Origin: Phoronis australis
Taxonomy: Eukaryota; Animalia; Phoronida
DNA length: 64,000 nt
NCBI GenBank assembly: GCA_002633005.1
Contig: NMRA01000826.1
Span: 62,001-126,000, forward strand
Reading direction: 5' to 3'
The translations under genes and the position numbers were made by a program. A model generated the notes under the pieces. That model was not told the DNA's origin, searched no databases, and saw only the letters and a program-made list of their open reading frames with translations. The number at the start of each line of letters is the position of its first letter. Position 1 is the stretch's first letter. Below, in pieces: positions 5,301-27,091 of this stretch.

Positions 5301-8300
5301 CATTGCAACATGGCTTGTTGCATACTCCAGACAAAATAGATTCCAATAACTAATGTAACGTGATACTTACAAACAGCCCTAGATTTATATGGTTTGTAGT
5401 GCAGTCGTGGGCGTATTTCATCTCTTTGTATAGATCTTGTGACATGAGTTGCTGTGAGAGGTAAATCTGAGCCTTGGTGTCATCTTGTGTTGCAGGTATG
5501 AAGTCAAGTTCCAGAGTGGTATGGACTGTGGGGGCTCTTACGTCAAGTTGCTGCAGCAAGACCCTGGCCTAGACTTGGTATGTACAACCCCATAACATCC
5601 ACAGGCATAAACATTTACCACTAATCTTGCAAACTTTCTTTATTGATTATATTCACTACACAAGTATGTGTACATTTTTCTTTAAGGTCTTTTACTTTAG
5701 CTCCCAATACCGTGTTTGTAAATAACAAACAATTCCACCAAAGTCTTGACAGCTGAGGTTTTTGTCTGAGAGGTCTTGAAAGAAAATCAAACTCTAGCTT
5801 TCTTACTTAAAGTGTTCCATCAAAGAATGAGACGAACTATCACTCTATCACTATAAAGAATGTCTCAAATTATTCCTGACTCAGCAAAGATTAAGACCAT
5901 GACAGTGTGTGCCCTTAATCAAAAGTTGGTTTTTGTTGAGGAAGGCTGGTTAACTATTACTTCAACAGAACAAATAAACAGAATTTGCAAGTTTTGTACA
6001 AGAATTTTCATGCCTGAAAGTTATGATGATCTTAAAAAAACAGTTTTTGTCTCTAAAAACGTTTGGACATTATTTCAGAGAGCATAGTGTTGTTGCTGGG
6101 CTCATTATGGATTTTAAAATATTTTTGATGGGACCAAGCTCAGTGTTTTGAAAAATGTGCCTCTTGACGTTTGGTTTCATAGGCTGTTATTTACCTTGAG
6201 CGGTTTATTTGGGTTTGGCTGCCAGTATTTGAAAATCTGTACAATACCGATACTGTGTGGTCCTTTAACCACGGGAGTGTCATCTGCATATTTTGATAGG
6301 GTGCGCCTCTGGGAAATTGGGATATTGAGCCTTTTAGAGAGTGGTTTACTGACTGTGAGCTGCACAGTTTGTTTCCCATCTTGTTTGATTGAATTGAGAA
6401 ATAAAGCAAGAAATCCTAAATGAGTCACACAGCTCTAAATGTAATGATTTTGGCACAGCACTTTTCATGTTGATACCATACTAGCATTTTTCATTATAGT
6501 ATTTGGTACATCACCGGCACTTCTAAAATATGTCCAACTACTAGACTTTACCGGGATTCACCCATGCATAAAAGTAGTCATCGGGGAATATTGTTAATAT
6601 GGCTAAAATACCACAGAATACCTGTCATCAATTTAGTGTTGCAGTTTTGAAGATATTCACTAGGTGGTGTACTGTTGGGAATGATCTCTTGAATAAAGTG
6701 AGAACAGAAAACTGTTCCTCTGCATTTGTGTCAGTCCAACTTGTTTCAATACCACCACCTAGTAATCTCATTTTGACAAGAATCATGCAATGCAAGTTTA
6801 CTTCCTTTACCAGCTCTGAATCTCTCAGCCACAGTAAATTTCCGCTTGTTTCCAGAAAAACTTTGTGGACAAGACACCTTTCACCATCATGTTTGGACCT
6901 GACAAGTGTGGCACCGATGCTAAGCTTCACTTCATTTTCCAGCACAAAAACCCCAAGACAGGGAAATATGAGGTAAAAATGTGCTCTAGTCTGTGTGGAT
7001 GTGCTTTAAACATGGCTGTGGTAGTGTGTGTGTATTAGAACGGCTTTCTTGTACACTCTGCAAAGTACAGCTATATTAAATGTCCTTTTTCACAGCAGCT
7101 TATGGTTACTCTATTTGTTTGTGTTTGGACGGGGACAATATGTACTCACTGCTAATATATGTGTGCGTTTAGGCTCACATGCCTACATGTGAAGCTATGC
7201 CTATATGTAATGTGAAGTGTGTATGCCTATATGTGAAGCTATGCCTATATCTGAAGTGAGGTGCTTCTGCCAACATGCTATAACTGTATCAGAAGTGAGG
7301 TACCTGTGACTACACGTGAACCTATGGCTATATCAGAAATGAGGTGCGTGGGCCTACATGTTTAGCTATGTCTATATCTGAAGTGAGATGTGTGTGCCTT
7401 TACGTGAAGCTGTGCTTATATCTAAGGCTAAGTGCTTGTGCCTTCATGTGAAGCTCACTGACCACTTGCTCATCTTGTCCCTTGGTCAGGTGAGAAGTGA
7501 TTTTTGATCTTGACATGCAAAGAACGAATGGTTTGTTGTTACTCGAGATCATGCCCAGTGCATAGAATAACACACCCTGACATGTCAACTTGTAAAGCTC
7601 GTCCTTGAGCAATAAGAAACTGCCAATTCTTTCCAATCCCACAAATCACATCTGTTTTACTAAGGAACAATTTGAAATCAATTTCATAAAGGTCCGTGGT
7701 CTAAGCGGGTTAAGTTGGGTTAATAGCCGCTTTAATTTAATAAGTGTTTTCATTTAAAGTGTTTAATTCCCTGTCAAACATTGATTTAGACCATGAAGTT
7801 GTGTCATCACGTCCATACACACTTGTCACACTAATGGCTCTTTTTGACAGGAAAAACACGCCAAACCTCCGACCAAGAAGTTCAGTGAAGCGTTTGACGA
7901 TAAGAGGACTCACCTGTTTACACTCGTGTTATTTCCCGACAATAAGTTTGAGATCTATGTAGACCAGAACCTTGTTAACTCTGGCAGTCTGTTGGCAGAT
8001 TTCAGGTAGGCAGTACATTTGTAGTTCATAACATGAGGCGCCTTGAAGGCAGTTGGTTGTCATAATTGGACACAACTTGCTTCTTGCCTAGTTATGAATT
8101 ACAGGTTGTCTGAACATTGTGTGCACATTTCAAATCAAATGAACAACATTGTTTAATGACACAGGAATAAGATTATTGGTTTTTACGAGGTGACTAAAAG
8201 GAATTAAATCTTTCAACTAAATGTATCCTTTGAAAAATAATTTTCTGCATTTCGTCAACGTTTTTGAGTTTTTAGTACCTGTTACTACACACAGAAAATT

Positions 8301-11300
8301 TCTTTTCTCAAAAACTGAAATATTTGTTTATCATTCCAGCACATACAGAATATGTGACAGGTGTCACACGTACTCTTGCACCAAGTTGTAAACATGCAGG
8401 TGACCTGGTCACAGTGTACCTGGTCACACTGTACCTGGTCACAGTGTACCTGGTCACAGTGTACCTGGTCACAGTGTACCTGGTCACTGTACCTGGTCAC
8501 AGTGTACCTGGTCACTGTACCTGGTCACAGTGTCCTGGTCACAGTGTCCTGGTCACAGTGTACCTGGTCACTGTACCTGGTCACAGTGTACCTGGTCACA
8601 GTGTCCTGGTCACAGTGTCCTGGTCACAGTGTACCTGGTCACTGTACCTGGTCACAGTGTCCTGGTCACAGTGTCCTGGTCACAGTGTACCTGGTCACAG
8701 TGTCCTGGTCACAGTGTCCTGGTCACAGTGTACCTGGTCACAGAGTGTGATCCATGACAATACTGCATTGGAAGTACTTACACACTGTATTATAGAATAT
8801 GTATCCTCAAACACTTCAAATACCTATTTTGATGTGACATTTCATAAATATAGACATTGTTGTGACAATTTAAACAACAATGGATATCTGTTGCTTGGAG
8901 GTTTTGTGTTATGAAGACATTAGCTGCTAAGGTTGTTTAGGACCTTGATAAATGACTTCAACTCTTAAGTGAAATATCGAAAAAAAAACTCTGCTTTGTT
9001 AACCATTGAAAGTACATATTTTCTAAAAGGAAAAGGATTGAGTATTGTAAGGGCTGTTCCAGCAAAATCCGTATGGGTGGGGGAGGCCGTCAGCAGAAAT
9101 AAAAATTCATGGATGGTGGCCTTCAGAAAAAAGCTCAAATTATGGTGGTCGTTCTTGTAAGAAGTGAAGCATTAAAAGTGGGTGGTATTTTTGACCTGTA
9201 AATGTTGACAGGTTGGTATTACACATCTCAAAAGAAATCCAAACTCATCAAAAATTCACTTGGCTAATACCCTAACATGTCCAAAAAACAAATAACACCA
9301 TGTTGCCAGTGTACAGAGTGCAATATGTACACTAAGCCATTAATCAAGTCATGGGCAACTTGATTACAAGCACAAGTTTAACTGCAGTCATATTAGAATG
9401 AAAATGTCTGCAACACTAAATTGGTGTTAACACATATAAGAAAATTGATGATTTTAAAATAAAACGTATGAGGGGTACGATAGACAAGTTCCAATATTCA
9501 CCTGACATACCAGAATAAAAGAGCTCGTGGAGACAGTTTTAGATTCACAGATCCATGAAATTGAAAAAAACTTTATTGAAAGTACAGACACATGGTAACA
9601 GAGACACCTAGTGGCTGCCAAAAGCATTGCTCACAGGTGTCTTTGAAAAGCACATTTCTGGTAACTGATACGAGTTGTGATCTCACATGGAATTTTTCTG
9701 CACCCACAAAAACTTTGTGGTCGGTCCGTCTGTCATTATCCTTTCTTGTCCATCAATTATCTCAAGAACCGCTTGGTGGATCATGATGAAATTCGGTACA
9801 GAGGTACTTCGCAAGGATGCACCTGCACCAGTCGATTTTCCGGGCGGGTTTGGCAACTTTGGTATCCCATGTTGGCCGCTTTAGTTTTCGACAAGTCATT
9901 CCTTGCATGTTGATTATCTCTTCACTGATCACTGACAATGAAAGACGAAATAGAAGTATATCGCAAGAATGTGCTGGCACCAGTCAATTTTTGGATGCTG
10001 GATTCAACTACTGTGGCACAACTGGAAATTTGGCACAAAAATATGTAGCAGGGATGAATGCGTTGACAGAAGTCATTTTCGTTTTGATTTGACCACCCTC
10101 TTGGCTACTTTAGTTTTGACAATATTGGACAAGACAACTAGTTCTTGTCTGTCAACAGGTCATCCTGGAGGCAGTTTGTTTGCAAGTGTTGGATTTTATA
10201 TTTTAACCTATTAGTTAAAAAATTATGGGTCATGGGTTGGAGAAATAAATGAAAAATATGGGCGGTGGGTACAAAATAAAAGTGCCTTCTCCCCTCCCAT
10301 ACAGATTTTGCTGGAACAGCCCTAAAGTTATGCTTCTTATTACGGTGTCTTTATAATTGTCACGTGACCCCATTTTTTAAGTAAAATTTCCATGTGCAAG
10401 AAAGGTACATTCATAGCAAAATAACCCCCGGCTAATTATACTATAACTTTCTTGTATGAAAATTGACGTTGTGTCTCCAAAACACTGTTAAGAATTTTTT
10501 ATTGTTCACTTAGTTCGAGGTTTATGCCAAATTAAGTTGCAAAACACCCAAATTTTTTGTAAAAAAACAACAGCGATATTGTTCGGTACACATTTTAAAG
10601 GAAAATTCTTACAGCATTTCTGAGACATAACAAAGTTTTTTATAAAAAAAATTAGCAAAATCGATTGGAGGTTTATTTTGCTATGAATGTACCTTTGTTG
10701 CACATGAAAATTTAACTTGAAAAACGTGTTCATGTACTAGTAATAAAGACACAGTTGTAAGAAGCGTATTTTTAGAATCCTCGGTCTTTCTCCTTTCAGT
10801 AAGTACATACTTTTAATGGTTGACAAAGCATAGTTTTTTCGATATTTGACTTGGAGATGAGGTCATTTATTAAGATCTTAGATAATCTAAAAACAATTTG
10901 TTGACTAATTCCAGCCCAGCTGTCAACCCTCCTGCCGAGATTGAAGATCCCAATGATAAGAAGCCTGTTGACTGGGACGAGAGAGAGAAGTATGCAACTT
11001 AGCAACCCCTCCAGTCGATCAGCTGTCAAATTAGAACACCTGCAAACTATCTGACGATATGTTGATTAGCTGATATCGAGTTACCTCCATTTATCGATTG
11101 ATTCATACTACATAGAACTGGGACAATCAATTACAGCATTAGTCATCCTCCAATGTGTAAAGCATGAAAAGCTTTTCTTCTATTTTCTCATTTTTGGAAT
11201 GTTGAATACATGTGATATGCAGTGTTATTAAGGGAGATTTAATAATGCTGACAATTTAGTCACTTGTCAAAACAAGGTAAATGGTGATTTTAAGGTCTTT

Positions 11301-14300
11301 AATGGTTACAGTGATGAAGTTCTTGATATTTTAGCTGGAATGACTTCTTTTCCAGTCCTTAACAAAGACATGCAACATTTAATGCCCATAGCTGTATCTG
11401 ACATAAGCTAGAAGTTTAATGGGTTCTACATTATTACTGGCACAACCTCATTACCCTGTAAAGTTATGTGTTTCTCTTGCAGAATCCCCGACTCTGATGC
11501 AAAAAAGCCCGAGGACTGGTAGGTTATGTTAGGCTTGCCTGCATTTTCCTTAATGATAGTCTTTCTCAGAAATAACTGGGAGTTACTACCTGTCCTGTAC
11601 TCTACTGTCCTGGTGTATTTAGTGGGTACCTAAGCAGAGTTTGCCTTCCACTTCCAAACATGGACCCACCTTCCAAAAATATTGGGGTTCAATTTGGATA
11701 TCTTGGTGTTTGGAAGCAGTCCAGAAATCATGACACTAGAAAAGAGTGATGTCCAAATTGCATTTGGCAAACCAGGTGGTGGGTCTTTCTGTGCAGGGCA
11801 CTCAGTCACCTGAAGGATAGATGCTTTATCTTATGAAAGGAGGATTTTGTGGCATTTTTTTACTAAGGCTGTAATTTTCTTGATGTTTATTTACTGCACT
11901 GTTTTTTGTGACAATAATCCTTTATGCATTCACAAATAAGCAAGTATAAACTTGAAGGTAAATAATTAGAAGTGAATAATTGTTAAATTCTATGCTGTGT
12001 TATATCCTGTGTCACACATACTCCTTAACATTCACTGCTGTATATATCCAGTGTCATAGCATCTATATCCTGTCACAGTGACTGTGCTGTGTCACAGTGT
12101 CTATATCCTGTGTCACACAGTCTCATACTCCTTAACATTCACTGCTGTATTGATCCTGTGTCGCAGTGTTGATATGCTGTGTCACTCTACACATACAGCT
12201 ACATTAACTGTCCTTCTTCACAGCAGCTCGTGGCTAATGTTCGTGAGTCTGTGTTTGGACGGGGGAGACAAATTATGTCAGCCTCTGTGTGGAACTAATT
12301 CATACCTCTACCCCAGCGGTGTTATTTAGGATTGAAACGGATGACATCACAACTTAAGATTTCCCAAGTTTTTTTTAAATTTTTTTATCATATCAATTCT
12401 TTTTCACGACATCTTACATTGATTAGCTTCTTTCATCAATTAAAATAGGTTTTTCCTGTATGGTATAAAAGTTGAAGCAAAGCTGCATTTCTGTGTAGAA
12501 ATAAAAAATGGCCAGTGACTAACTTAGGGCTGTTCCAGTAACATCTGTATGGGAGGGGGGGAAGGCACCTATTTTTCGCACCCACCACCCATATTTTTCA
12601 TTTATTTCTTCAGCCTACCACCCGTAATTTTTTATAAGTTTGAAATGCAACCACCCGTAATTTTTTTTGTTCTTGTGGTTGACTGCACAGACGCTTGAGT
12701 TTATCTGTTCCTCCATCACCACTGATGTCATTCATTACTAAGAAAACACATGTTTCTTATATATGGTTATTAGCCATAGAGAAATTCGAGCACCTGTGGT
12801 TAAATGGTGTTATGGGCATGCCGATGAGGAGATCGGAGGGAGTGAAAAAGTTGCATTTTTGTTTCAGTTTTTGATTCTGTGCGGATTGTTTATAAAATTT
12901 ACTAAAATTACCCACCATCAAACATTTATGGCCCAATGAAAGAACAACGACCTGTGAATTTTTATTTTTTTGAAGTACGACCACCAGCCATTTTGAATTT
13001 AAATCAAACACAACCACCCATAAATTTTTATTTCAGTTGCCTTCGCCCCCCCCTCCCACACAGATTGTGCTGGAACAGCCCTTAGTAAAGTTATTAAATC
13101 CGTGACCAGTTACAAAAACTGCTTCTTTTCAGTTCCAAAGATGAGTAGGATTCCTGGTTCAGTTGTGTCTACTTCTCAATGGTATTTCATTCCATCCCTC
13201 TATGAGAAACGTAATGATTGTGTCGCCAGTCTCAAATTGTTTTGTGAGATGGTAGCCAGAGTTTAGTGACGGGTCACACACACGCGTTGAGACTACCTCT
13301 TCAACCAAACATAATAAAACGTGGTCGCGTGAGCCTCCCGGTCATTTTGCATTTTTTCCTCAATGCTTGCCTCCACCTTCTGCTGGTGATTGTCAAAGTT
13401 TATTTCAGGGACGAGACATTACCAGAAATGATTCCTGATGAGAGTGCTGTGAAGCCTGAAGGTTGGCTAGATGATGAGCCTGATTTGATCCCCGACCCGT
13501 CTTCAGAGAAACCATCTGATTGGTTAGTTCATCACTATTATACCACTGACGTCAGGCCTGAATAAGTTTAGTGCAGGATGGTACTAAAACCATTCAGAAC
13601 ATCATATCTGCCGTACTCGTCCGGATTACCACTCATGCTTGGCTAACCGTCCACCCCAAAATTTTCATTTTTAAGCGCCCATGCTCGGCTTACCACCCAC
13701 CCCCAATTTTTTATGATCGAAACCTTCTTAAAAGCGTGTGTGCTTTTGTGAATGTTCGTCTCGCAAAACTAAGATTTCAAAACGTGTGCAATTCGCTTAC
13801 TTTTCAATGACAATCAGTTTTAGCAGAACCGGGAACTTGCCTTACTATGGCGGTAAAATAACCATATTCTCATGCTCTACTAAAGTAGACACAATATTGT
13901 TTCCTTTGGCTCACGTGCAGAACTCGTGTCAGCATGTACTGAGACAGCTCTTGTCGAATGTATTTCATTGCCGTGGAAAAACCAACAAAGTGGTACTTGA
14001 CAAGAATTTCAAGTCCGTGGCCTACCTTTCTGGATAACCCTGACTGAACACGAAACATCACCTTGAGCAATGAAATATAAAAAAAAAACACGAGCACACT
14101 TGGATGATACATGACCATCGATTTTGGAAACTCCACCGGCAATATTTTGGATGCATCGTTTTGAATACAAGCCAATACGGGCCATATTTCCGTGTCTTCA
14201 TTATAATCACGTTTTTAATGGCTCATTCCTGAGACCAAAGTGGAAGCGCCCAACCAAAAGCAACGGTGCAAGAAATCAACTTAAGCGCTAGTCGAACATT

Positions 14301-17300
14301 CTATCCACATCTACGTGGTCAAAACTTATTTTTTTTTGAACTCCTGATTTGCTTGTTGACTTTTTGCGTGATGTGTTTTTGCTTTTTACATGCGTTTTTG
14401 CTTCATTATTTTCGCAGCCGACTGACCACCCCTATTGCCTAACAGTAGTACCGTCTGATTGTTGATCACGTGCTTTGAACAAATTCTGGGAGGTCGGTAT
14501 TGGCTGTTCAACACAGAAAGAAGTATACAATGCATATAAAATGTAACATTGTTCAAACTAGGTTCAAAGTATTTAGAAGAAAGACCGGCTGTCAATCATT
14601 AGCACGTGTGGTTGCCAAAGTAATTATCAGCAGCATATCTTTACAAAATCACCTGCTTCCAGAGCAGTACATGATGATCTCGCGTAGTCTTGCGTGATTT
14701 CGCTTTTCTCAAGAAACGTGCCCTACTGAAGGCACGTCTATCTGTAAGAATACCTCAGTTCCATGACATGACGAGCAGCGACCGAAGTACGTAAAAACCC
14801 AATTATGCTCGGGATCACAGCGCCACTGTATCCTGTGCGCTATTCCACTTCAGCCCGTCGAAGTCCATTACTTCAATCTGCCGACGTATATTTCAACTAA
14901 CGTGCTTGAAGTCCGGTATCAGTGTACCTCCGTGAGGGTAAAATCGGTCTTTTTTGCAGTAAGCACCCACTCCCGACTTTTCAAAAATGTCAATTTTGAC
15001 CGCCCATGCTTGGCTTACCGCCCATGCTTGGCTTACCGCCCACCCTGTTTTTTAGATTCCCACTTTAAGCGCCCTGGGCGATAACCCGAACGAGTGCGGT
15101 ATGTTCTTTAGTTTAACTTTTTGTGTTGGAAGGTTGATTGCATTAAATTCTAATATTTGTTTGACACTTGCCTGCCATACTGTGTCACAAGCAGAACCTG
15201 CGTTTTGGTTTTGCAAGTTTATTTCACCGAGACCTCTGTTGTCCTATTTACACTGTTAATGTATCTTGTAGGGACGATGACATGGACGGAGAGTGGGAAC
15301 CAGCCAAGATCTGTGAGTATTTTATTGGTGTTCTTGGGTTTGCTATGTTTTGAAAATCAAATATTTGTATGTGTACTTGTTGGCAGCATGGATACTACTG
15401 ATATGCTTCTGAAAGTCATGGAAATATTGAGGTATCTTGTATTAAAATACCTGTCCTTGATTTATGTGGCTCAAGACTGAATGCTATATGGTAATGCTAT
15501 ATGGTAATGATATATGGTAATGATATGTGGTGGTAATGCTATATGGTAATGCTATATGGTAATGATATGTGGTGGTAATGCTATATGGTAATGCTATATG
15601 GTAATGCTATTTTGTACTGTGTTTCAGCCAACCCCAAGTGTGAAGCTGCTCCTGGGTGTGGCGAATGGACACGACCTCAGATTAAGAACCCCCTGTACAA
15701 GGGCAAGTGGCGTCCACCTATGATTGCCAATCCCAACTACAAGGGTACATGGAAACCAAAATTGATCGCCAACCCAGACTTCTTCGAGGACAAGACACCA
15801 TACAAAATGACTCCCTTTGTAAGTAGTCCATTTTTAATACAAAACAAATTTTCCCTGTATTGTGTACTAGTCTGGTTATTGACTTCCTCCAGCACACCTA
15901 TCTTCTTTCGTTACAATCAGTAGCTATAGTTACTGGGTATCAGATTTTTACTTGTTACATTAGTTCTACTTATAGAACCTTGTTAACACTCATTTTTCTG
16001 CATTCCTTGAGAATGAGGCCTGCTTAATTCTAAGTTAGAGAACTGTTTCAGTGGTTAAATGGAAGTGCATGTGAAGTCAGAGGCGACAACATTTGCTCAT
16101 TTGCATATTGTCCATTAATTTTCAAATTAAATTGGCCAAAGTTTGACAGAGAACTTTGTCAGACTCTGCCAATCTTGCACGAACTTGTTGTTATAGTTAT
16201 TTGGCAATTTACTCAAATCTGTCGTAATAAAATAGTGTTTTTGTTGAAATTTAGTCAGATATTAATGACAGAATATTTCGTGTAGCCACTAATTGTTATT
16301 TGTGAGTTGACCTGCAAAGTTGAGTAATTTTGACAATCTGCATGGAGTGACACCTGTTGAGATTTTGTGGAGATTTAGCGAGAATTGGAGTGGGTTGTAT
16401 TGAAAACGAAATGGAGTCATGGTTTTGTGTATGAATTTAGACATTGTCCAGTGTACTTTGGCTCAATTGGTATTTTATTTTTTAATGAATGTTACATAGC
16501 AGCCTAGATTTTATAGGATTTCAAAAATGAAAATCGTGAAAGTTATAGATGATTTATTTGCTCCCCTGTCAGGTGGCTATTGGTCTTGAACTGTGGTCCA
16601 TGTCTGACAACATCCTCTTCGACAACTTCATCATCACTGATGACAAGGCAGTTGCAGACAGTTGGGCTGGTAAAACATGGCTACTCAAGAATCGCTACGA
16701 GACGGCTAAGGCTGCATCCAGTGGCAAGGTACATTTGACCTCGTAGTAACTGCTGTGTAACTTGTTTTGATCATGTATTCAACAAGGTGGTCACAATTTA
16801 AATAAGAATTTCCTGCCCAGTGTCGCTGTGGTAGATCTAATGTCCCAGGCAGTGCACAGTTTGTGTGATGGATGTGAATCCAGGCTTTGGTGAAATTGTA
16901 CCTGGCTGATAGCACTGTCTCCAGCAGAAATTGTTTCATTCGAACTTGGACTGGTTCCGTTTTCATACGTGCACATGACTTTGTATAAATATGTGTGCAT
17001 ATTGCTATCTTGACGTTCTACATATTGGTCGTAATTGACTATCACCCTGCAGTATCGAGATCCATTTTTAACTACAGTGAGGGGGGCAAGTTTATCGAAC
17101 TTAATACTAAAATCAACAGCATGCACACAAGTTGTGTTACCATTTTCTTTGTTTTCAAATGTTAGCAATGCCATCCTCACTTAATGATGATCACGAAGAC
17201 ACTCACCAGGTGGTGCTAATGTGTGATGTATACACTGTAACAGTAAAGCATAACAGTTGTGACAGGTGTGCATGTTTTATGAGGAAAACAGTGAACCTTT

Positions 17301-20300
17301 CATGTAACACTTCACTAAATTAAATGCAATAAGTAACCAAGAAAGTTTATTTTTAAAAGTTGTTTTAATTTAACTGGCGTTAATTGAACTTGATGATTAA
17401 TATATCACGAATTAGTATGAGCGCCTAACACAATGTGTGAAACTTATTTCAACTCAACTTCGGCATGTGTGAAGTGTGGGTCACCAAATAACAGTGGGCA
17501 GTGTCACTTTCGACCTGTCGCACTTCAGCTTTCTTTGTCAAGATTGCTCATGAGCCAAAATAAAAATTTCTTCAATTTTAAATACAAACCATTATCGTAT
17601 ACACCATTGGTATAGTATTGGTCAGTGAACACAAACCATTATCGTATACAACATTGGTATAGTATTTGTCAGTGAATACAAGTAGTTAAAGTAAACTTAC
17701 CTAGCTGCAGCACTATCAGCATCAATGCTTGACCTCATTTCTCTTGTCATTCAGTAAACCATTCCTCCAGAATTCAGTGATTTTGTGTCATCAAAGTGCT
17801 TCCCAAGAACTAAACCTACGAGTTAAGTCCAAACTGCTTGAAGAATTATAAAGCCAGTCTTACACAAAACAGTTTTGTTCAGTGTTGGTTAGTGATGCTA
17901 TTTTATTCCAATTCAAAAATGTTGAATAATTTGTTTGCAAGACCACGTATGGCCCATAGGGTTGACTTGTGTCATTCAACTTGTGTGCATGATTGTGATT
18001 GTGATTATGCTGCAAAATGGGACTGCTGCAAAGTCCTTATTTTTGTATACTTAGGTTCAACAATTTTTTGGTATTCATTTAATTTTGGTCATAGAAATGA
18101 GTATTTTAAATTGAACCCTATGTCGACCTGAAACAAGCGCATGATTTCTCTGTCCATCAACTATCTTGTTGTCTAATTTTATGTACTTTCATTGTCATAT
18201 GAGTTGTTTGACAACAATCTGATTGTTTTCCAGCTGAATTTTTTCCAAAAACTGTATCACTGGACTAAAGAGAAGCCTTGGATGTGGGCTGTCATAATAC
18301 TGGCTATTGTGCTTCCCACTCTGCTCTTTATTGCGTTTTGCTGCATCAAAACGCCACATGGTAGAATCAAGGTAGTGCAGTGTTGTCATTATGCATGCTC
18401 ATCCCGGCCAGGTGACCTTCATGTCATCTGGAGAAGCTGGTGCTGGATAAATCCCTGCAATTTTCAAGGATGTGGTTGACACAGCTTTATGAACAATTGA
18501 GTAGTGTTCTTAGTGTCAACCTGCCCCTGTGTGTACAAATATTCAACAGAATTGTGTGAAGGTCACCGGGCCATACATGTCTTATTTCTGTTCACTTTGT
18601 TGTTGTTGCAAGCTAACGTTTGTCTTCATCAGGGTGGTATCAGTGGGTTCTTCAGCATGCTGCTAGACGCTGCCAATGACCGCCCGTGGCTGTATGCCAT
18701 CTACCTCGTCGTTGTACTCCTCCCTGTTGTCGTCCTCTCCATTTTTCTATGTCCGTCCAAGCCACAGATTCCAGAGGTAGACAGTTTTCTGTTAACATGA
18801 ATGTCTTTCAGCTATGCAGGATGTGATACGTGAGCTTTAGCCAAGTTTGAAGCAGTATGCAGTGTTGACTTACTCTATGTGTTAGTCCTGCCTGATAGGT
18901 TTACAGTGACACTTAAACATGTACTTGCATGCTTCTAACTATGCTAATGTACAGCAGGAACTAAACGACAATGCTATTTGAACAACTGTGCTAAATAAAG
19001 AGCAGTTGTATTCACTTGTAAATGTGAAAACAAAAAACTCTGCAAATAGGTGACCTTTGCACTTATGGGGCTCACATAGCCCGCATCATGCAGTGTTATT
19101 CCCCAACACCACGTCGCGATACTTATTGGATACAGTTGTGTGATTTACAGCGGATCATTATCGACACAAAACTCATTCTTAAAAACATTTGGCAATTTTC
19201 AACCTACTTCATATTCTCATCATCGCTATATGTTGTGTGTCTAACTAATTTGACCGAGCAAACACAGAGATATGGAATTAGTGTGCTAGTTCAACTTTAA
19301 CTTGTTACCATGTTTATGTACAGCCCACATGTACAGTGTAGTAGAACTCCAGTTAGGGAAAAATTAATAACTTTGCCCTAGACCAGAGCTTGTACTAAAT
19401 TTTAGAAATAGGCACTACTGACTGTCCCAAATTCAAGAGTCACCAGAAATACTTAAAAATTAACTGCTAAGTATGTTTTGTCGGACTGTCTTGATACAAA
19501 ACCCTATGTCTGAAATTTGAGAAATGTAACGACTGCGACAATCGCCCATCTTCAGAATCAAGGAAATTCAATCTCTGCCGGAACATTGGTGTCCCAAATT
19601 TTAGAAACTTTCCCAAATTGGAAAATTTGCACCAGTAATCAGTATCGTCTGTTACTCCTCGTAATTACTAGTGGAATTCTCCATCACAACTTTTGAGCGC
19701 AAACAGAATTCACGGTCATCGTTACCATCTTGGCGGGGAGCGACTGTTGAATTTTACTAGAGTTAAGATCTAATCAAGTGTAAACAAACATTGTGGCAGA
19801 TACAGCAAGGTGCAAACAAAGAAATACGATGCATACTTAAGTTGATCACACATGGTCACACTGCTACATGCTTGAGTGACCAGTTGTGCTTCAAAATTGT
19901 ATTGGGTGGCGTAGTTGAATATTAAGGTCTTCCTTTGGCTATGAAATGCACTGGCAGTTGTGTTAACATATGCATGTGTACATTATTCTTATGTGAATCT
20001 TGACGACAAACAATTCTATGCATGAAACTGTCATATAATCTAGGACTCCCTATCATTCACTGCTGTATGTATCCTGTGTCACAGTGACTATATGCTTTGT
20101 CATAGTGACTGTATCCCATATCACAGTGTCTGTATCCTGTGTCACACAGTCCCATACTCCTTAACATTCACTGCTGTATATATCCAGTGTCACAGTGTCT
20201 ATACCTGTCACGGTGACTATGTGCTGTGTCACACAGTCCCATACTCCTTAACATTCACTGCTGTATATATCTAGTGTCACAGTGTCTATACCTGTCACAG

Positions 20301-23300
20301 TGACTATGTGCTGTGTCACAGTGACTATATCCTGTGTCACACAGTCCCATACTCCTTAACATTCACTGCTGTATATATCCAGTGTCATAGCATCTATATC
20401 CTGTCACAATGACTATGTGCTGTGTCACAGTGTCTATATCCTGTGTCACACAGTCTCATACTCCTTAACATTCACTGCTGTATTGATCCTGTGTCGCAGT
20501 GTTGATATGCTGTGTCACTCTACACATACAGCTACATTAACTGTCCTTCTTCACAGCAGCTCGTGGCTAATGTTCGTGAGTCTGTGTTTGGACGGGGACA
20601 ACATATCCTTGTTAAGATAGTGGTTGTAAACTTAGTTGGATTACCATTATAATTTATTACAATATTCTGAATCTCGGTAACATTTTACAAGAACACCACG
20701 GTATGTTGTCTTGATCGTTTTAGCTATTGAGCTGAGCTGTGTAACCAATTGTATATTATTACACAATGTTAGGTTGCCTATTGCATGATGAACTCGCCAC
20801 GAACTTATTGTCTAGACATCTTCTTGTCCTAATCTCCCTGGATATCATTATCTCGTGTTTCTTAACCAATGCACACAATTTTTGTCAGGCTGAAGATGAT
20901 GCAGGTGAACGAAAGAAGACTGATGAAGCAACGGCAGACGATGCAATAGACGAAGAGGAGGAGGAGCCTGAACAAGAAAGTGATGAGGTAGCAGCGGGGG
21001 CGGGTGATGCGCCGGAGGTGGAACAAACCAAGAAGAAAGGCAAGAGTGCCTTAGATGCAGAGGTGAGTTAAGTGTCAGGCAGTGGCTTTATAAAGAGATG
21101 AGTCATTGGGAGGGGTGGGTGGATTGGTTTGTAGGGGAAGTGTGTAGGTTAAACGGACAGATGAGTTGCTGGGACAGGTTGGTTTGTAGGGGAAGTGTGT
21201 AGGTTAAACGGACAGATGAGTTGCTGGGACAGGTTGGTTTGTAGGGGAAGTGTGTAGGTTAAACGGACAGATGAGTTGCTGGGACAGGTTGGTTTGTAGG
21301 GGAAGTGTGTAGGTTAAACGGACAGATGAGTTGCTGGGACAGGTTGGGTGAAAGCGTGAGCAATTTGTGATTCGATGTTGTGCAAGGTCATAGCAGTGCT
21401 TTGTTGTATAACCTGCCGTGTGCACTACTTATTGTATTTGTTGTATAACCTGCTGTGTGCACTACTTACTGTATTTGTTGTATAACCTGACGTGTGCACT
21501 ACTTATTGTATTATTGCTCACTTGTACCCATCTCCAATACTGATTTAAATACTGAAAGCGATGCCACCAAAAGTGTGCCATTGCACTTAATCAATGCAAA
21601 CTGTTGGTCTAAACAACTCATTCCTTACTTATATAGATGAGATGTGATTTCTGAGTTAAGATTTGACATCTTGTTATTCATGGAGATCATGCTGGGCGTA
21701 TCAGATTACAAGCCAATATGTAGAGCCTGATCTCAAGTAATAACGAAATGTCATTTCTAAGGAGGTCTAAAATAACCTTCAATTTACTAAGGAACAATAT
21801 GAGACCAATATCACAATGATAAGCAGGGACTCATCTAGCGACCGTCATTGGATGCCACGGCAATGATGGCATGGCCAAGACAGAAAAGACGGCAAGACAA
21901 CCTTGGCGAAAATGACAGCTAAATGAAGAATTTTAGCATTTATGATCAATAAATTTTATTGAAACTCACAATCCATTGTTTTTAGTTTGATAAATATTCA
22001 GAAATAACTCGACATTAGAGACTATTGCTGTCTATTTCTACTATAAATGTCACAATGACTCGGCAAATACTGGCAGCCATGTTTTTTGGGGAATACCTTC
22101 CTGTTGTTTGTGATGTCAGGGTGACCTTATATGGAATTTCCAGCATGGCGAGTGGAGAAATATTGTATCCAGCGCTAACTAACCGTACATGGAACTTAAT
22201 GTTTGCCGTACCCCTAATGCTCGTTGCCGAAATAGGAGAACCTTTATGATGAAAAAAATGATACCTGTCGACTGACCTGCCGTACAAATGCCACGAGTGT
22301 CGTTGAACATGCAAACCAGATAAAACTGAGCGCCAACTTCCCTAATTTGTTTGCACTGTTCCGTTGCAACTCGAACGAATAGATGAAAAAATTAATACAA
22401 AATCTGCTCATGCCGAACGACATATATTGATGTGCGAGAACACAGTGCAAACTTGACAGTCACGAAAAAATGAAATGTTTCATCTAATGTTGGTTACCTG
22501 TCCAATGACTAACTTAGCATGTAAGTAAAAGCCTTGATTTGAAATACTTTTTGTGAAATTCCACGATTATTGGGCGATTCGAGTTTGCTCTGTGTGTGGC
22601 ACTGCTGTATATGGAAAACGGTCACCCAGTCACATTCACAACACCTGTTACTTCGGCTGTGAAGCAGGCCGCGATTTGGGTCTTAAAACTGCAAGAAAAT
22701 AATGGTTCTTTTTAGGAATATATTTGTTGTAGCATAGTATGAAAAAGTGGTTGATTTTGGGCCTGGTAAGTGTCAACAAAGCATCCATTTACAATCCACT
22801 GCAGAAGACGCTAAAAACCACAATGTCCCCGGCAACCACTGGCGGCACTTGTAGCCAAACTCTAGGCGACTCCAAATTTTGCGATTAAAACACTCGGAAA
22901 AACGATTGGAAAACGTCAAAATATGAGCACCTAATTCAAACACAGTTCTGACATGTTTTTTTTTTGTCATCATCTTACACGAGGCCAAGTCTGGGTACCG
23001 AAGCGCAGGTGTAAATATGCCGTCACTCCTATTTTCGAGCGGAGATTTTTGCTTGTGTTGAGTGCCGGTGGGCCTGAGTTGTGAATTTCTTGAGGATATG
23101 TGTCCACATTTTCACAAATTTAATTTGGACCCCAACTTTTCAAATCGTAGATGAGTGCCTGATGATAAGTGAACTAAATCAAAGGTGGATTTTTATAACA
23201 ACAAACACTTAAAGTTCTTGTTCATGTTTACAAATGATCAATTAATTAGTTAATTGATGTTGATTGATTTTAAGGAGGAAGAAGAGGAGAATGAAGGTGA

Positions 23301-23367
23301 AGGAGAGATTGACGAGGAGGTCACACGGAGGTCATCACCAAGGAAGAGGAAACAAAGGAAGGATTAG
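2199..23367 (+). CDS. CANX: Calnexin gene (5'-partial; 15 coding exons in window, including two alternative TM exons)
   Basis: GT-AG exons join in phase. They encode calnexin motifs: [30 protein letters not shown]-domain repeats ([17 protein letters not shown]), IGLELWSM, a TM segment and an acidic tail ending [10 protein letters not shown]. Signal-peptide exon(s) were not found in the window. Confidence 0.97.
3005..3081 (+). CDS. CANX: Calnexin exon [26 protein letters not shown]
   Basis: ttcag| acceptor, |gtaagt donor; phase 0-2. Confidence 0.95.
4361..4778. repeat. 59-bp tandem repeat x7 with palindromic core
   Basis: Period 59 (4361, 4420, ...); each unit contains ACATAATTATGT. Confidence 0.95.
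5496..5577 (+). CDS. CANX: Calnexin exon [27 protein letters not shown]
   Basis: tgcag| acceptor, |gtatgt donor; calreticulin/calnexin family CGGxYVKL signature. Confidence 0.96.
6856..6972 (+). CDS. CANX: Calnexin exon [39 protein letters not shown]
   Basis: tccag| acceptor, |gtaaaa donor; IMFGPDKCG signature. Confidence 0.96.
7178..7455. repeat. Degenerate ~39-bp tandem repeat
   Basis: Recurring gcctacatgtgaagctatgcctatatctgaagtgagg-like units. Confidence 0.7.
7851..8005 (+). CDS. CANX: Calnexin exon EKHAKPP...[32 protein letters not shown]
   Basis: gacag| acceptor, |gtaggc donor; phase 0-2. Confidence 0.95.
8404..8743. repeat. 13/15-bp minisatellite (cctggtcacagtgta)
   Basis: More than 20 near-perfect units; source of the spurious ORFs at 8285-8914. 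Confidence 0.97.
9051..10322. mobile_element. PIF/Harbinger-type MITE
   Basis: TIR GGGCTGTTCCAGCAAAATC.GTATGGG at both ends; TAA target duplication. Confidence 0.88.
10322..10775. mobile_element. Foldback-like MITE with long inverted arms (related fragment near 52890-53150)
   Basis: ctaaagttatgcttctta...tgtctttat pairs with ataaagacac...aagaagcgtatttttag; internal aggtacattcatagcaaaataa is inverted near 10673-10695. Confidence 0.7.
10915..10989 (+). CDS. CANX: Calnexin exon [24 protein letters not shown] (P-domain)
   Basis: tccag| acceptor, |gtatgc donor; type-1 P repeat. Confidence 0.95.
11483..11518 (+). CDS. CANX: Calnexin 36-nt exon [11 protein letters not shown]
   Basis: tgcag| acceptor, |gtaggt donor; phase 2-2 P repeat. 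Confidence 0.93.
11995..12268. repeat. Dispersed satellite-like repeat, near-identical to 20330-20600; its tail also occurs at 7068-7140
   Basis: Shared catactccttaacattcactgctg units and terminal cacagcagctcgtggctaatgttcgtgagtctgtgtttggacgggg. Confidence 0.85.
12527..13081. mobile_element. PIF/Harbinger-type MITE (second subfamily)
   Basis: GGGCTGTTCCAG...CTGGAACAGCCC termini; TTA duplication. Confidence 0.9.
13409..13522 (+). CDS. CANX: Calnexin exon [37 protein letters not shown]
   Basis: ttcag| acceptor, |gttagt donor; P repeats. Confidence 0.95.
13611..15099. mobile_element. Non-autonomous Tc1/pogo-like DNA transposon
   Basis: Imperfect TIRs CCGTACTCGTCCGGATTA / TAACCCGAACGAGTGCGG, TA on the right flank, subterminal cgcccatgcttggctta repeats. 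Confidence 0.7.
15272..15312 (+). CDS. CANX: Calnexin exon [13 protein letters not shown]
   Basis: tgtag| acceptor, |gtgagt donor; P-domain tip. Confidence 0.94.
15481..15611. repeat. 13-bp minisatellite (atgctatatggta) abutting a splice acceptor
   Basis: About 9 units. Confidence 0.9.
15628..15818 (+). CDS. CANX: Calnexin exon [13 protein letters not shown]...[16 protein letters not shown]
   Basis: ttcag| acceptor, |gtaagt donor; type-2 P repeats. Confidence 0.96.
16573..16728 (+). CDS. CANX: Calnexin exon [22 protein letters not shown]...AASSGK
   Basis: gtcag| acceptor, |gtacat donor; phase 0-0. Confidence 0.95.
18234..18371 (+). CDS. CANX: Calnexin transmembrane exon A ([46 protein letters not shown])
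   Basis: tttccag| acceptor, AAG|gtagtg donor; 138 nt, phase 0-0; PWxW-TM-FCC pattern of the calnexin TM segment. Confidence 0.85.
18633..18776 (+). CDS. CANX: Calnexin transmembrane exon B ([48 protein letters not shown])
   Basis: gctaac branch point, catcag| acceptor, GAG|gtagac donor; 144 nt, phase 0-0; AA.(D/E)RPWL-TM pattern. Confidence 0.92.
20050..20600. repeat. Tandem/dispersed repeat (same family as 11995-12268)
   Basis: Repeated tgtgtcacacagtcccatactccttaacattcactgctg units. Confidence 0.88.
20889..21062 (+). CDS. CANX: Calnexin acidic cytosolic-tail exon ([12 protein letters not shown]...DAE)
   Basis: gtcag| acceptor, |gtgagt donor; KKTD motif. Confidence 0.93.
21124..21347. repeat. 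55-bp tandem repeat x4
   Basis: Identical ttggtttgtaggggaagtgtgtaggttaaacggacagatgagttgctgggacagg units. Confidence 0.95.
21401..21512. repeat. 37-bp tandem repeat x3
   Basis: ttgttgtataacctgccgtgtgcactacttattgtat units. Confidence 0.9.
21824..23161. mobile_element. hAT-family non-autonomous element
   Basis: TIR CAGG(G/C)ACTCATCTA; perfect 8-bp TSD ATGATAAG on both flanks. Confidence 0.92.
23275..23367 (+). CDS. CANX: Calnexin last coding exon [30 protein letters not shown]
   Basis: ttttaag| acceptor; SPR site and basic ER-retention tail as in vertebrate RSPRNRKPRRE; TAG at 23365-23367. Confidence 0.92.
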   Translation, partial: EEEEENEGEGEIDEEVTRRSSPRKRKQRKD

Positions 23368-24786
23368 GTTGTTGTGCTGTCGTCCAGTTGGAAACCACCT
23401 GCAGGAGCTATTAAATTCTATAAGCAATCTGACGAGCATACTTTAGTCATAACATTGAATAATTGTGTTACAGGTATCATAAAAAACAAGCCTTGTCATA
23501 GGACTTACACTCATACTTGTTGTTAAGTTTATTTGTTGCAATGTTTATGTTAAACATTTATCTCTGTCAGTGGTGTGTACATAATGTCCAATCCAACAGT
23601 TTTGTACAGTACAGCACTGCTATGTATATCTGGTGTTACACGATCTATGGTCATCTTTTACTGCTTTAATGATGTTATTTGTGACCATTAACGAGTATCA
23701 GGTTAGATAATTTGTATTTTTTTGTAACAACTGTTAGTGTGGAGGTTGTTTGCTCGATTCTCCTGGACAAGTGAACGTAAATGTGTGAGAAATAACTTCA
23801 CAACAGGTATGACTTGTTGGGAGTGCTACACTTAGTACTTGTGCTAGTTGAATGTGCTTCACTTTCTTACCACATACTCACATTCGATCCAAACATTCAG
23901 TTAGACTACATGACCTTCAACTCTTCTAAACTATTGTGTAACACTTAGGTCAGCCTCTAGGCTTATATTAATAAAACTAAAAAAACATTTGTAGTTAACC
24001 AGACGTTGTGGAAGGTGTGTGGGTGGTTGATATATGTGTTGGTCTTGCACCAGTAGTTTAGTCAAAGCTTTAATTTTGAACATTTCAAATTTGGTCACTG
24101 GTAAACAGGTAGTGCATGCGGTTGTTGACTTGTGCGAGTTTACGTGTACTGGCTAGCAGTAGTACACAGCAGACACTGCCAGTGGACCACTCAGCCAGGA
24201 TAAACAGGACTAAGGAAATTGTTTCTAGTCAGTGTTTTGTTTCTGTAAGTAAGAATTGAGTGCAGTCGGCAGAAGTGATATGGCTAAACCACTTCATTGC
24301 TCTGGAGTGTGTTGTGATGGTAAATGCCACTTCCTTCAGAGTTGCACACGCTCATATCACAGCTTACTGCTGTATTTTGGTTTCCGTCTGTGCACAACTC
24401 CTGGGTTTATTAATATCCGGAATAGTTTCAGTTATGTTGCTCTATTAATCCTTCATTTTCTTGTAGGATTTTAGTTGGACAGGAAGATTTTGGAGGCAAG
24501 TCACTGATTTTCTTAGGCAAGCAAAATTGTGTAATTGAAAATCATAATTTTGATTGATGTAGAGCAAACGTTTAGTAATGTTGGTACCTTGCTCATTTGT
24601 GCAACACGGTTTGGGCTGTCCATGAGCTGTTGATTGGTCTAGTTAGCAAGTTAGATACTACACTGTATATTTGTACATTGTGTTATTGATTTTTATTAGA
24701 TTAACACAGGGAACCCATCAGTTTTTATCTGATTTTGATCATTGTTGTATATTTCAGTTCCTTTACAAGTTGTGTATTTCAATCAT

Positions 24787-25988: not shown

Positions 25989-27091
25989 AACAAGAGCAAC
26001 GCAGAGCGTTGAAATGCGCCCACAATTGCACCGCCAACGGTATCCTTCTAGGGTTGTTTATTGGTACCATAAAGTGGCCAGTAGAGGGCATATATGTAGT
26101 ATGTTGTACTTAGCAAAATGGAAAGGCATGGTCATTGTCTCCTCAATAGGCTAGGGGCAAAATGTGAGTAATCTTCATAATACAAGCACATCCTATACAC
26201 CAGTTGCTTAAAGCACCACAGAAACATAGAATTAAAAACAAATTTACCAACATACAAGATTAGCACAGCATTAGAATGCCAGAAACAAATTTCTACTTGG
26301 AACTTTTCCTTCACAGTCACGAAGTAACACAAAGTATACACCTGAAGACCTATGAAAATACAGAGGTCAATGTAAAATNNNNNNNNNNNNNNNNNNNNNN
26401 NNNNNNNNNNNNNNNNNNNNNNNNNNNNNNNNNNNNNNNNNNNNNNNNNNNNNNNNNNNNNNNNNNNNNNNNNNNNNNNNNNNNNNNNNNNNNNNNNNNN
26501 NNNNNNNNNNNNNNNNNNNNNNNNNNNNNNNNNNNNNNNNNNNNNNNNNNNNNNNNNNNNNNNNNNNNNNNNNNNNNNNNNNNNNNNNNNNNNNNNNNNN
26601 NNNNNNNNNNNNNNNNNNNNNNNNNNNNNNNNNNNNNNNNNNNNNNNNNNNNNNNNNNNNNNNNNNNNNNNNNNNNNNNNNNNNNNNNNNNNNNNNNNNN
26701 NNNNNNNNNNNNNNNNNNNNNNNNNNNNNNNNNNNNNNNNNNNNNNNNNNNNNNNNNNNNNNNNNNNNNNNNNNNNNNNNNNNNGTCATCTCACTAATAG
26801 GTGCCAACATACCAACTTTCATGAAAATTCGTTCAGGACTTTTGAAGATACAAAGGTAAGCGTAAAAAACTAAAATTGCCACTAGGGGGCACACCGGTAG
26901 TCGGATCCGTCCGAAAGTTCGCACATGCAGTCCCATTCATGAATGGAACATATGTGCCAAATTTCATGAACGTATGTCAAAGGGTTTTGGAGATAGAGCA
27001 GCGGACGCCGACCGGACGGACGGACAAACGGACGGACGGACAGAGATGACGGCATAATGCGTCCACATATAAATATGTGGGCGCATAAAAA
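25989..27091 (+). mobile_element. HINE/DINE-1-like (Helentron-associated) element spanning the N gap
   Basis: aacaagag + hairpin CAACGCagaGCGTTG + subTIR ATGCGCCCAC; other end has an (ACGG)n microsatellite and palindrome atgcgtccacatataaatatgtgggcgcat; A-rich flanks. Confidence 0.85.
26379..26784. other. Assembly gap (406 N); single-N joins also at 36524, 43424 and 45664
   Basis: Runs of n, all inside or at repeats. Confidence 0.99.

Follow-up and report, generated by a model that had tools for sequence, protein, structure and literature searches.

Results

Exons A and B of a calnexin gene are homologous, in-frame, tandem exons encoding alternative transmembrane segments, and they are mutually exclusive in RNA reads; the short intron between them is predicted to close into a strong local hairpin of arm U and element M. 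Our preferred reading, held at about even confidence, is that the two exons are used singly, that the single-copy U-M stem probably keeps M from pairing with a downstream element, D, and that a pairing switch is probably not what chooses the exon. The docking/selector switch proposed for these exons in the initial annotation was unsupported and is likely not there: D has the letters of a repeat consensus, the M-D pairing is no better than those of shuffled sequences, and the U-M pairing spans no exon. The features are listed in Table 1 by their positions in the window, the 64-kb stretch of DNA that was analysed as a whole.

Table 1. Features of the calnexin locus around the alternative exons.
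Feature	Positions	Strand	Basis or remark
Constitutive calnexin exon 5' of the alternative pair	16574..16728	+	Joints 16728->18234 and 16728->18633 in RNA reads
Element X, 5' of exon A	17944..17955	+	Complementary to 18568-18579 (3' edge of M); 12 nt, 92%
Exon A, minor transmembrane exon, 138 nt, 46 codons, phase 0	18234..18371	+	RNA joints; calnexin alignment
A-B intron, 261 nt, GT..AG	18372..18632	+	Sequence, RNA joints
UGCAUG word, candidate site	18392..18397	+	20 nt past exon A 5' splice site, 8 nt before arm U
Arm U, 5' arm of the hairpin	18406..18423	+	18406-18421 plus two G-U pairs added by the fold
Nested perfect 9-bp stem (18474-18482 / 18513-18521)	18474..18521	+	In minimum-energy and centroid folds
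Element M, 3' arm of the hairpin	18554..18572	+	60 nt 5' of exon B 3' splice site
Exon B, major transmembrane exon, 144 nt, 48 codons, phase 0	18633..18776	+	RNA joints; calnexin alignment
Very high-copy interspersed repeat, intron 3' of exon B	18913..19300	.	Contig depth, loose ends
Element D, proposed downstream selector	19049..19062	+	Within the repeat; letters are the family consensus
Constitutive exon 3' of the pair	20889..21063	+	Joints from both A and B; translation

Alternative transmembrane exons of calnexin

Calnexin is a central chaperone of the ER. Exons A and B are identical at 11 of 41 residues (E 2e-05), and in alignments both fall on the transmembrane segment of calnexin. Their use was followed in three raw-read RNA runs (X5, X6 and X7) with the same species label as the window, with a listing threshold for joints of 3 reads and 2%. 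The joint from the upstream exon to B was found in 53, 33 and 19 reads and that from B to the downstream exon in 97, 50 and 20 reads of X5, X6 and X7, respectively; the corresponding counts for A were 4, 0 and 0 upstream and 5, 8 and 0 downstream. The share of the joints was approximately 86–100% for B and 0–14% for A, with few A-including reads in total (4 upstream, 13 downstream). Neither an A-to-B joint nor a joint skipping both exons was found above the threshold in the three runs. The RNA joints and the calnexin alignment confirmed the initial annotation of A and B as alternative calnexin transmembrane exons, and confirmed that they are used exclusively of each other in these reads. The A share of the downstream joints differed from run to run (5/102, 8/58 and 0/20), but was not taken as regulation, because the read numbers are too low.

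The upstream exon ends at a codon boundary (...AASSGK in translation), and the choice between A and B exchanges the transmembrane and juxtamembrane segment in its entirety. The A-type exons close with CC and the B-type exons with one C and then P, a difference that is also found in the relatives; the window's exon A is of the CC type (…IAFCCIK…) and exon B of the C-P type (…IFLCPSK…). In mammalian calnexin, the juxtamembrane cysteines are palmitoylated and direct its ER location, and therefore the A and B isoforms could differ in localisation. Literature searches found no description of this calnexin exon pair.

Several simple mechanisms for the exclusivity were considered and rejected. Frameshift with nonsense-mediated decay does not apply, because the lengths of both exons are divisible by 3. 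Steric hindrance was discounted on spacing: a branch-point-like CUAAC (18613-18617) in the A-B intron is 244 nt from the 5' splice site, or approximately 78 nt with the hairpin closed, and both values are above the minimum of about 50–60 nt between a 5' splice site and a branch point. U2/U12 incompatibility was discarded since both introns begin with GTAG... and both 5' splice sites are of the GT type. No other mechanism enforcing the A/B exclusivity was evident from the sequence in terms of frame, intron length or splice-site type. Because frame and intron length cannot enforce the exclusivity, the strong hairpin between the two exons offers a concrete target for experiment.

The exon pair in other animals

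The peptide of the upstream exon found 23 related loci. A-like and B-like exons were in tandem in the genomic locus of a distant relative (L005) and in P0121, and a further animal (L013) had three such exons. Exon B was closest to the B-type Pomacea sequence P0052 and to fragments of the same type in other animals. Judging from these sequences, the exon pair is older than the repeat insertion, being tandem in L005 and P0121. Two cDNA-like sequences, L002 (B-type) and L004 (A-type), were rejected as isoforms of one species, since their DNA was just 78% identical. Neither exon B nor exon A had a match in word-indexed searches of longer proteins, and a metagenome scan with exon B was also negative.

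The A-B intron of L005, the only orthologous one obtained, is 128 nt long, and the window's is 133 nt longer. Pairwise alignment of the two introns showed no real conservation. The L005 intron contained neither elements like U, M or D nor a comparable stem, its fold was not stable (z-score +1.56) and no inverted repeat joining its ends was found. At this single evolutionary depth the result goes against the proposed switch, for which the initial annotation had named a lack of conservation as refuting; the L005 upstream exon is 67% identical to the window's, and at such a distance this absence says little about lineage-specific elements. L005 also had no counterpart of element X.

A strong hairpin in the A-B intron

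The coordinates and letters given in the initial annotation for U, M, D and the nested stem, including its nine perfect base pairs, agreed with the sequence. Arm U (18406-18421) reads GGCCAGGTGACCTTCA and M reads GTGTGAAGGTCACCGGGCC. The pairing of U with 18557-18572 was counted as 15 of 16 positions, as had been claimed, and the full stem as folded was 18406-18423 / 18555-18572. The energy of the U-M duplex was -32.1 kcal/mol, a value that no dinucleotide shuffle of the partner (0/200) reached in either direction. Across 10000-24000, U was the best partner of M, and M was the best partner of U. The stem appeared in both the minimum-energy and the centroid folds of the A-B intron and of 18372-19100, and 17 of 18 checked U-M positions were paired in the minimum-energy fold. 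By these predictions, U-M is a real, strong local stem beyond chance and is expected to fold; for the entire A-B intron, stability was unremarkable (z -1.14). With both arms inside the A-B intron, the U-M pairing encloses no exon and does not qualify as a selector for A.

The hairpin is single-copy. The unique contig alone covered 18150-18887 at 80% likeness in four DNA runs from one sample, and no second copy was found in the 64-kb window. Its interpretation as a MITE or foldback transposon was rejected on these grounds and because no target-site duplication was seen at its edges. Rfam covariance models, consulted for known structured RNAs such as an intronic miRNA or snoRNA, had no match in 18372-18632.

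It is conceivable, though on balance rather unlikely, that the U-M stem is a neutral by-product that leaves splicing unaffected, for example an inverted copy made by template switching or what is left of an old palindromic insertion. Inverted-repeat 16-mers with at most one mismatch within 700 nt formed 9 clusters at approximately 6–7 loci in the window against approximately 0.5 expected by chance (an estimate), and therefore such inverted repeats arise often. The extra 133 nt of the window's intron can be set beside the 167 nt spanned by the hairpin; L005 keeps the exon pair with its shorter, hairpin-free intron, and the fold of the whole window intron is unexceptional. However, the single-copy state and the edges without target-site duplication do not favour a neutral origin, and U-M is the most G+C-rich inverted repeat of the window (10/16) and occupies the very intron in which regulation would be looked for. 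Had it been old and neutral, more than one of its 16 positions should also have decayed.

The downstream element and its repeat

Element D (19049-19062, GGTGACCTTTGCAC) sits 273 nt past exon B within a very high-copy repeat. In DNA run X1, the summed contig depth over 18913-19300 reached 182,359, compared with 47.6 in the unique flanks, and 3,750–5,496 contigs per run matched this interval (5,496 in X1). Loose ends with random flanks and low agreement (0.35–0.39) marked the repeat ends at 18913 and 19300. The consensus of the other copies before 19067 was AGGTGACCTTTGCAC... (agreement 0.67–0.71, 49–85 contigs per run), and the window's copy is internally deleted after 19067. RNA reads covered the repeat on both strands and had many variant letters. 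The 64-kb window contained no second copy; the sole Rfam match with E up to 1 was snR41, at 23.8 bits against a gathering score of 50, on the minus strand within the repeat, where ARAGORN detected no tRNA.

The pairing between M and D proved to be as described: all 14 positions of D pair without interruption with 18554-18567 (12 Watson-Crick pairs, 2 G-U), 11 of the M bases (18557-18567) are common to both pairings, and exon B would be looped out, since 18633-18776 is between M and D. The M-D duplex energy was -24.8 kcal/mol. Of 200 shuffled versions of the downstream intron, 71 contained an equal or better partner for M, and similar energies were obtained elsewhere in 10000-24000 (-25.2 kcal/mol at 20200 and -24.9 at 22105). 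Contiguous 14-nt helices within 2.5 kb formed 41 clusters in the 64-kb window, many of them in repeats; as a clean contiguous helix of this length, M-D is uncommon, rarer than it is by energy. Thus, the idea of competing pairings stood in so far as one element is complementary to two others via overlapping bases, but the complementarity exceeded chance for U-M (0/200) and not for M-D (71/200).

In the fold of the region, U-M was present as described above, and forcing M-D had a cost of 4.1 kcal/mol in 18372-19100. When U was blocked in this fold, M paired with D at all 14 positions. An alternative M-D conformer would be feasible, because the forcing cost is only 4.1 kcal/mol and D takes M in the absence of U. 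Duplex prediction of whole intron against whole intron (duplexfold) yielded unrealistically extended interactions. The sequence common to U and D is just the 10-mer AGGTGACCTT, and the flanks are unrelated; therefore, U and D are not duplicated selectors.

In the model of the initial annotation, U-M is the default state in which B is usable, and a minority M-D pairing loops out B so that the weaker A is used, with the repeat-derived D having been co-opted. We consider this model improbable. The overlap of both pairings at M 18557-18567, the capture of M by D when U is blocked and the small forcing cost are all compatible with it. The B-dominant ratio fits the stronger U-M, and a minority M-D looping out B would fit as well; contiguous 14-nt helices are uncommon, and no other exclusivity mechanism is evident from sequence. 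These points are opposed by the shuffled introns and the other windows that give M similar energies, by the identity of D with the consensus of a very high-copy repeat, and by the restriction of the likeness between U and D to the 10-mer. In addition, the exon pair predates the insertion, as the tandem arrangement in L005 and P0121 indicates, the elements are absent from L005, and U-M neither activates nor loops out any exon. A narrower version, in which D is a selector brought in by a transposon that vies with the older U for M, so that B is looped out of a minority of transcripts, seems slightly less probable again. If it were true, a mobile element would tune an ancient, mollusc-wide choice of calnexin anchors that differ in their juxtamembrane cysteines.

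Other candidate partners and sites

Element X, 5' of exon A, could compete with U for the 3' part of M, such that X-M loops out exon A (the major outcome) and U-M is the local alternative. We regard this as very unlikely. The X-M duplex (-28.7 kcal/mol) makes X the second-best partner of M in 10000-24000, and the best M partner in X's intron (-29.0 kcal/mol) was equalled in 4 of 200 shuffled versions of that intron. The X-M complementarity covers 12 nt at 92%. The layout resembles that of ATE1, one pairing across an exon and the other local (PMC7797038). On the other side, X was found post hoc as one of six tests, it has no counterpart in L005, and its overlap with U-M is limited to the outer 4–5 pairs. 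Moreover, U-M is stronger and nearer, and X-M should be rare, yet the skipping of A is the major outcome.

The initial annotation cautioned that the word tgacctt recurs in the window. This was borne out weakly, with TGACCTT occurring 9 times on the plus strand and 4 times on the minus strand against approximately 8 expected by arithmetic. We take AAGGTCA/TGACCTT to resemble a nuclear-receptor half-site, and the word is present in U, M and D, but a reading of these words as protein-binding sites in DNA instead of RNA pairing partners can hardly be correct, since 13 copies are no clear excess over approximately 8, one of them is merely repeat consensus, and the U-M complementarity (17 pairs) is far longer than a 7-mer site.

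Discussion

We return to the preferred reading, in which the local U-M hairpin forms and a pairing switch is probably not the exon chooser. U and M are transcribed before D and are the lowest-energy pair, and the hairpin would close co-transcriptionally. The closed hairpin would reduce the 261-nt intron to approximately 94 unpaired nt, namely 34 nt past the exon A 5' splice site and 60 nt before B. The stem may bury a 5'-splice-site-like AG/GUGACC in U and keep M from long-range pairings, and the 3' region of exon B would be left free, which is consistent with B as the default exon. The minority use of A might then be set by splice-site competition together with trans-acting factors on the short A-B intron. 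UGCAUG is a candidate site for such factors; it is a weak lead, given 25 copies on the plus strand of the window, and one copy lies in the L005 A-B intron (at 4185). The effect of the hairpin is not explained by the simplest rule, because a stem joining the intron ends should aid A-to-B splicing, which was unseen. More generally, a G+C-rich stem arm readily finds a second partner by chance, and this partner may be a repeat consensus.

Among known systems, inverted Alu pairs in primates provide repeat-derived complementarity that loops out exons, through pairings of hundreds of nucleotides between two copies. The present locus is similar in that an interspersed repeat supplies D and the pairing would loop out B; it differs in that the pairing would join a unique element to no more than 14 nt of a single repeat, which has no second copy in the window.

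In insect Dscam1 exon 6, 14-3-3zeta and Mhc, the docking site is outside the exon cluster, the selectors are beside their own exons and the elements are conserved (PMC6071210). The tandem homologous exons and the complementarity of M to two intronic elements via overlapping bases recall these genes. However, here M separates the two exons, nothing is looped out by U-M, D is a repeat consensus pairing at chance level, and the one available orthologous intron is without the elements. The same article presents the model of Ivanov and Pervouchine, in which an exon and one intronic stem arm are duplicated jointly in tandem, which generates competing structures (PMC6071210). The tandem duplication of A and B and the similar words in U and D, 3' of the two exons, would suit that model, but it predicts similar flanks of U and D, and here the flanks are unrelated and D came with a repeat insertion.

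Human ATE1 exons 7a/7b, where R1 and R4 compete for R3 (PMC7797038), share with the calnexin exons a two-exon cluster with a shared partner in the inter-exon intron, one pairing being local and the other across an exon. The arrangement of U-M and M-D would be roughly the mirror image of that in ATE1. It differs in that U and D have only 10 nt in common and D is inside a repeat, 273 nt past exon B.

Alternative transmembrane exons of the calnexin gene

The + strand of the window carries a eukaryotic calnexin gene, one exon of which (15627-15818) gave 164 protein matches at E ≤ 1e-5, with a calreticulin-family domain in all 120 of the matches listed. We derived an exon model by mapping three stranded RNA runs labelled with the same species (X5, X6 and X7) to 16400-21150. 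At a listing threshold of 3 reads and 2%, the three runs showed neither an A-to-B joint nor a direct joint of the upstream to the downstream exon. The share of exon A in the downstream joints was 5/102, 8/58 and 0/20 in X5, X6 and X7, respectively. These results show that exons A and B are mutually exclusive alternatives, and that B is dominant.

Exons of the calnexin transmembrane region and RNA reads across their joints
Feature	Position	Strand	Basis	X5	X6	X7
Upstream exon	end 16728	+	RNA reads			
Exon A	18234-18371	+	RNA reads			
Exon B	18633-18776	+	RNA reads			
Downstream exon	start 20889	+	RNA reads			
Joint upstream to B				53	33	19
Joint B to downstream				97	50	20
Joint upstream to A				4	0	0
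Joint A to downstream				5	8	0

Both exons align to the calnexin transmembrane region and are homologous to each other (11 of 41 residues identical), and both have GT-type 5' splice sites. Exon A is 138 nt long and exon B 144 nt; because both are phase 0 and multiples of three, a frameshift cannot enforce the exclusivity. Nor is the A-B intron too short for splicing, since it has 261 nt with a CUAAC word 16 nt 5' of exon B. The RNA differed from the assembly at 20720 (T>C), in its few covering reads (4, 5 and 1), and at 20944 (C>T) and 20954 (A>G), in all reads; this is probably variation between individuals.

A dominant stem in the A-B intron

The initial annotation had described two pairings that share bases, and this observation was confirmed in the sequence. 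Within the A-B intron, element U (18406-18421) pairs with element M (18557-18572) at 15 of 16 positions, and a perfect 9-bp stem (18474-18482/18513-18521) is nested between them. M (18554-18567) also complements element D (19049-19062) in 14 contiguous pairs including two G-U; both pairings use the same 11 bases of M, and the stretch from M to D contains exon B.

With short flanks, the duplex energies were -32.1 kcal/mol for U-M, -24.8 for M-D and -14.5 for U-D. U-M was present in the minimum-energy and centroid folds, both for the intron alone and for 18372-19100, and 17 of the 18 positions checked were paired in the minimum-energy fold. None of 200 dinucleotide shuffles of the partner region reached its energy in either direction, and U and M were each other's best partner across 10000-24000. 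When DNA contigs from four runs of one sample were compared at 80% likeness, 18150-18887 showed only unique depth (47.6 in run X1), from one contig in which no other letters occurred. No further copy of the hairpin was present in the window and no target-site duplication was seen at its edges, and with the unique depth these led us to reject a transposon. The fold of the whole intron is not unusually stable (z -1.14), and inverted repeats of similar quality occur at about 6-7 loci in the window. The folding predictions and copy-number data make a solid case for U-M as the dominant, single-copy local hairpin.

Element D lies in a high-copy repeat

D is located inside a very high-copy interspersed repeat at 18913-19300 (about 388 nt), which was found in 3,750-5,496 contigs per run with a summed depth of up to 182,359. 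Random flanks from 18913 and 19300 on bound it in the DNA contigs, and RNA reads cover it on both strands with many variants. The copy in the window has an internal deletion after 19067, and between it and the listed pieces of further copies, about 200-285 nt long, there are 19-46 letter differences. No tRNA was found in the repeat, and its sole Rfam match (snR41, E 0.41) was far under threshold. At the place of D, the consensus of the other copies is AGGTGACCTTTGCAC..., which D matches, and therefore its letters were not shaped at the calnexin locus.

More repeats lie in the calnexin introns, with similar reading frames at 12029-12330 and 20040-20620. A tandem array (21100-21430) follows the exon at 20889-21063, and inverted element copies (8947-9070/10808-10858 and 10217-10330/12520-12660) flank about 9-12.6 kb. 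The assembly has a gap of 406 N at 26379-26784 and single N at 36524, 43424 and 45664.

The proposal that U and D compete for M, and thereby govern the choice of A or B, is improbable. Clean helices of 14 nt are not common (the window has 41 clusters within 2.5 kb), M pairs with D when U is blocked, and forcing M-D costs only 4.1 kcal/mol. However, M-D is no better than chance, as 71 of 200 shuffled downstream introns gave M a partner of equal or better energy; partners comparable to D also occur elsewhere in the gene (-25.2 and -24.9). Moreover, D has the consensus letters of its repeat family, and the U-M pairing neither loops out nor activates an exon. The alternative exons and the U-M stem of that proposal hold, but an M-D pairing above chance and a tie of U to an exon do not, and D is a weak candidate for a competitor.

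Related loci in other animals

Scanning metagenomes with the upstream exon as query yielded 23 related loci. One of them, L005, is genomic and has a tandem A-like exon (about 4003-4131) and B-like exon (about 4260-4388), each of 129 nt. P0121, a protein found with exon B that resembles a Dreissena protein, has A-type and B-type segments in tandem; Pomacea P0052 is B-type, and only one transmembrane exon is present at each of eight worm-like loci. From the tandem pair in L005 and P0121, it follows that the exon pair is much older than the repeat copy at 18913-19300.

Folded over 4133-4260, one base off the final boundaries, the 128-nt A-B intron of L005 gave no stable structure (z +1.56). It also lacks the GGTGACC word, its two ends are not joined by any inverted repeat, and it shows no alignable similarity to the A-B intron of the window. 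At 67% identity in the upstream exon, L005 is a distant relative, so this absence does not settle whether the stem may have a lineage-specific function.

L013, a metagenome contig from another animal, apparently has three tandem transmembrane-like exons (650-780, 950-1075 and 1225-1343), 3' of the conserved upstream calnexin exon. The two exon types differ at their ends, where A-type exons have two adjacent cysteines (...CC...) and B-type exons one cysteine then proline (...C-P-[KRS]...), a distinction kept in several animals (exons A and B here, L005, P0121, P0052 and P0123-P0129).

Proposed mechanism and comparison with known systems

The best explanation, to which we give about even chances, is that the exons are used one at a time, that the U-M hairpin likely keeps M from D, and that the switch likely is not what chooses the exon. 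The hairpin would close once M is transcribed, when D is not yet made. It would shrink the A-B intron, leaving about 94 nt unpaired, and bar M from long-range pairings, consistent with B as the default exon. The minor use of A may be set by splice-site competition and by factors binding the short A-B intron. A stem joining the intron ends should promote A-to-B splicing, yet none was seen, a point against the proposed mechanism.

UGCAUG occurs at 18392-18397, 20 nt after the 5' splice site of exon A, where it is predicted to pair with positions +5 to +8 (UGCA) of that site, and also in the L005 A-B intron (4185-4190). Because the word is common (25 copies on the + strand of the window), we take it as a lead only, and it may be chance. 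Element X (17944-17955), in the intron 5' of exon A, is complementary over 12 nt with one mismatch to 18568-18579 at the 3' edge of M. It was found post hoc, with 4 of 200 shuffles as good; this pairing would loop out exon A.

The calnexin pair belongs with tandem-duplicated mutually exclusive exons, here accompanied by an intronic stem. Full-text searches listed no publication that deals with alternative calnexin transmembrane exons. The U-M-D layout is like that of docking/selector control, but here M-D is within chance and U is tied to no exon. In the Ivanov-Pervouchine model (PMC6071210), the selectors are duplicated, whereas the likeness of U and D ends at the 10-mer AGGTGACCTT, their flanks being unrelated; they thus are not duplicated selectors in that sense. 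The layout of U-M and M-D is like that of human ATE1 as a mirror image, and X-M together with U-M would resemble the layout of ATE1 (PMC7797038).
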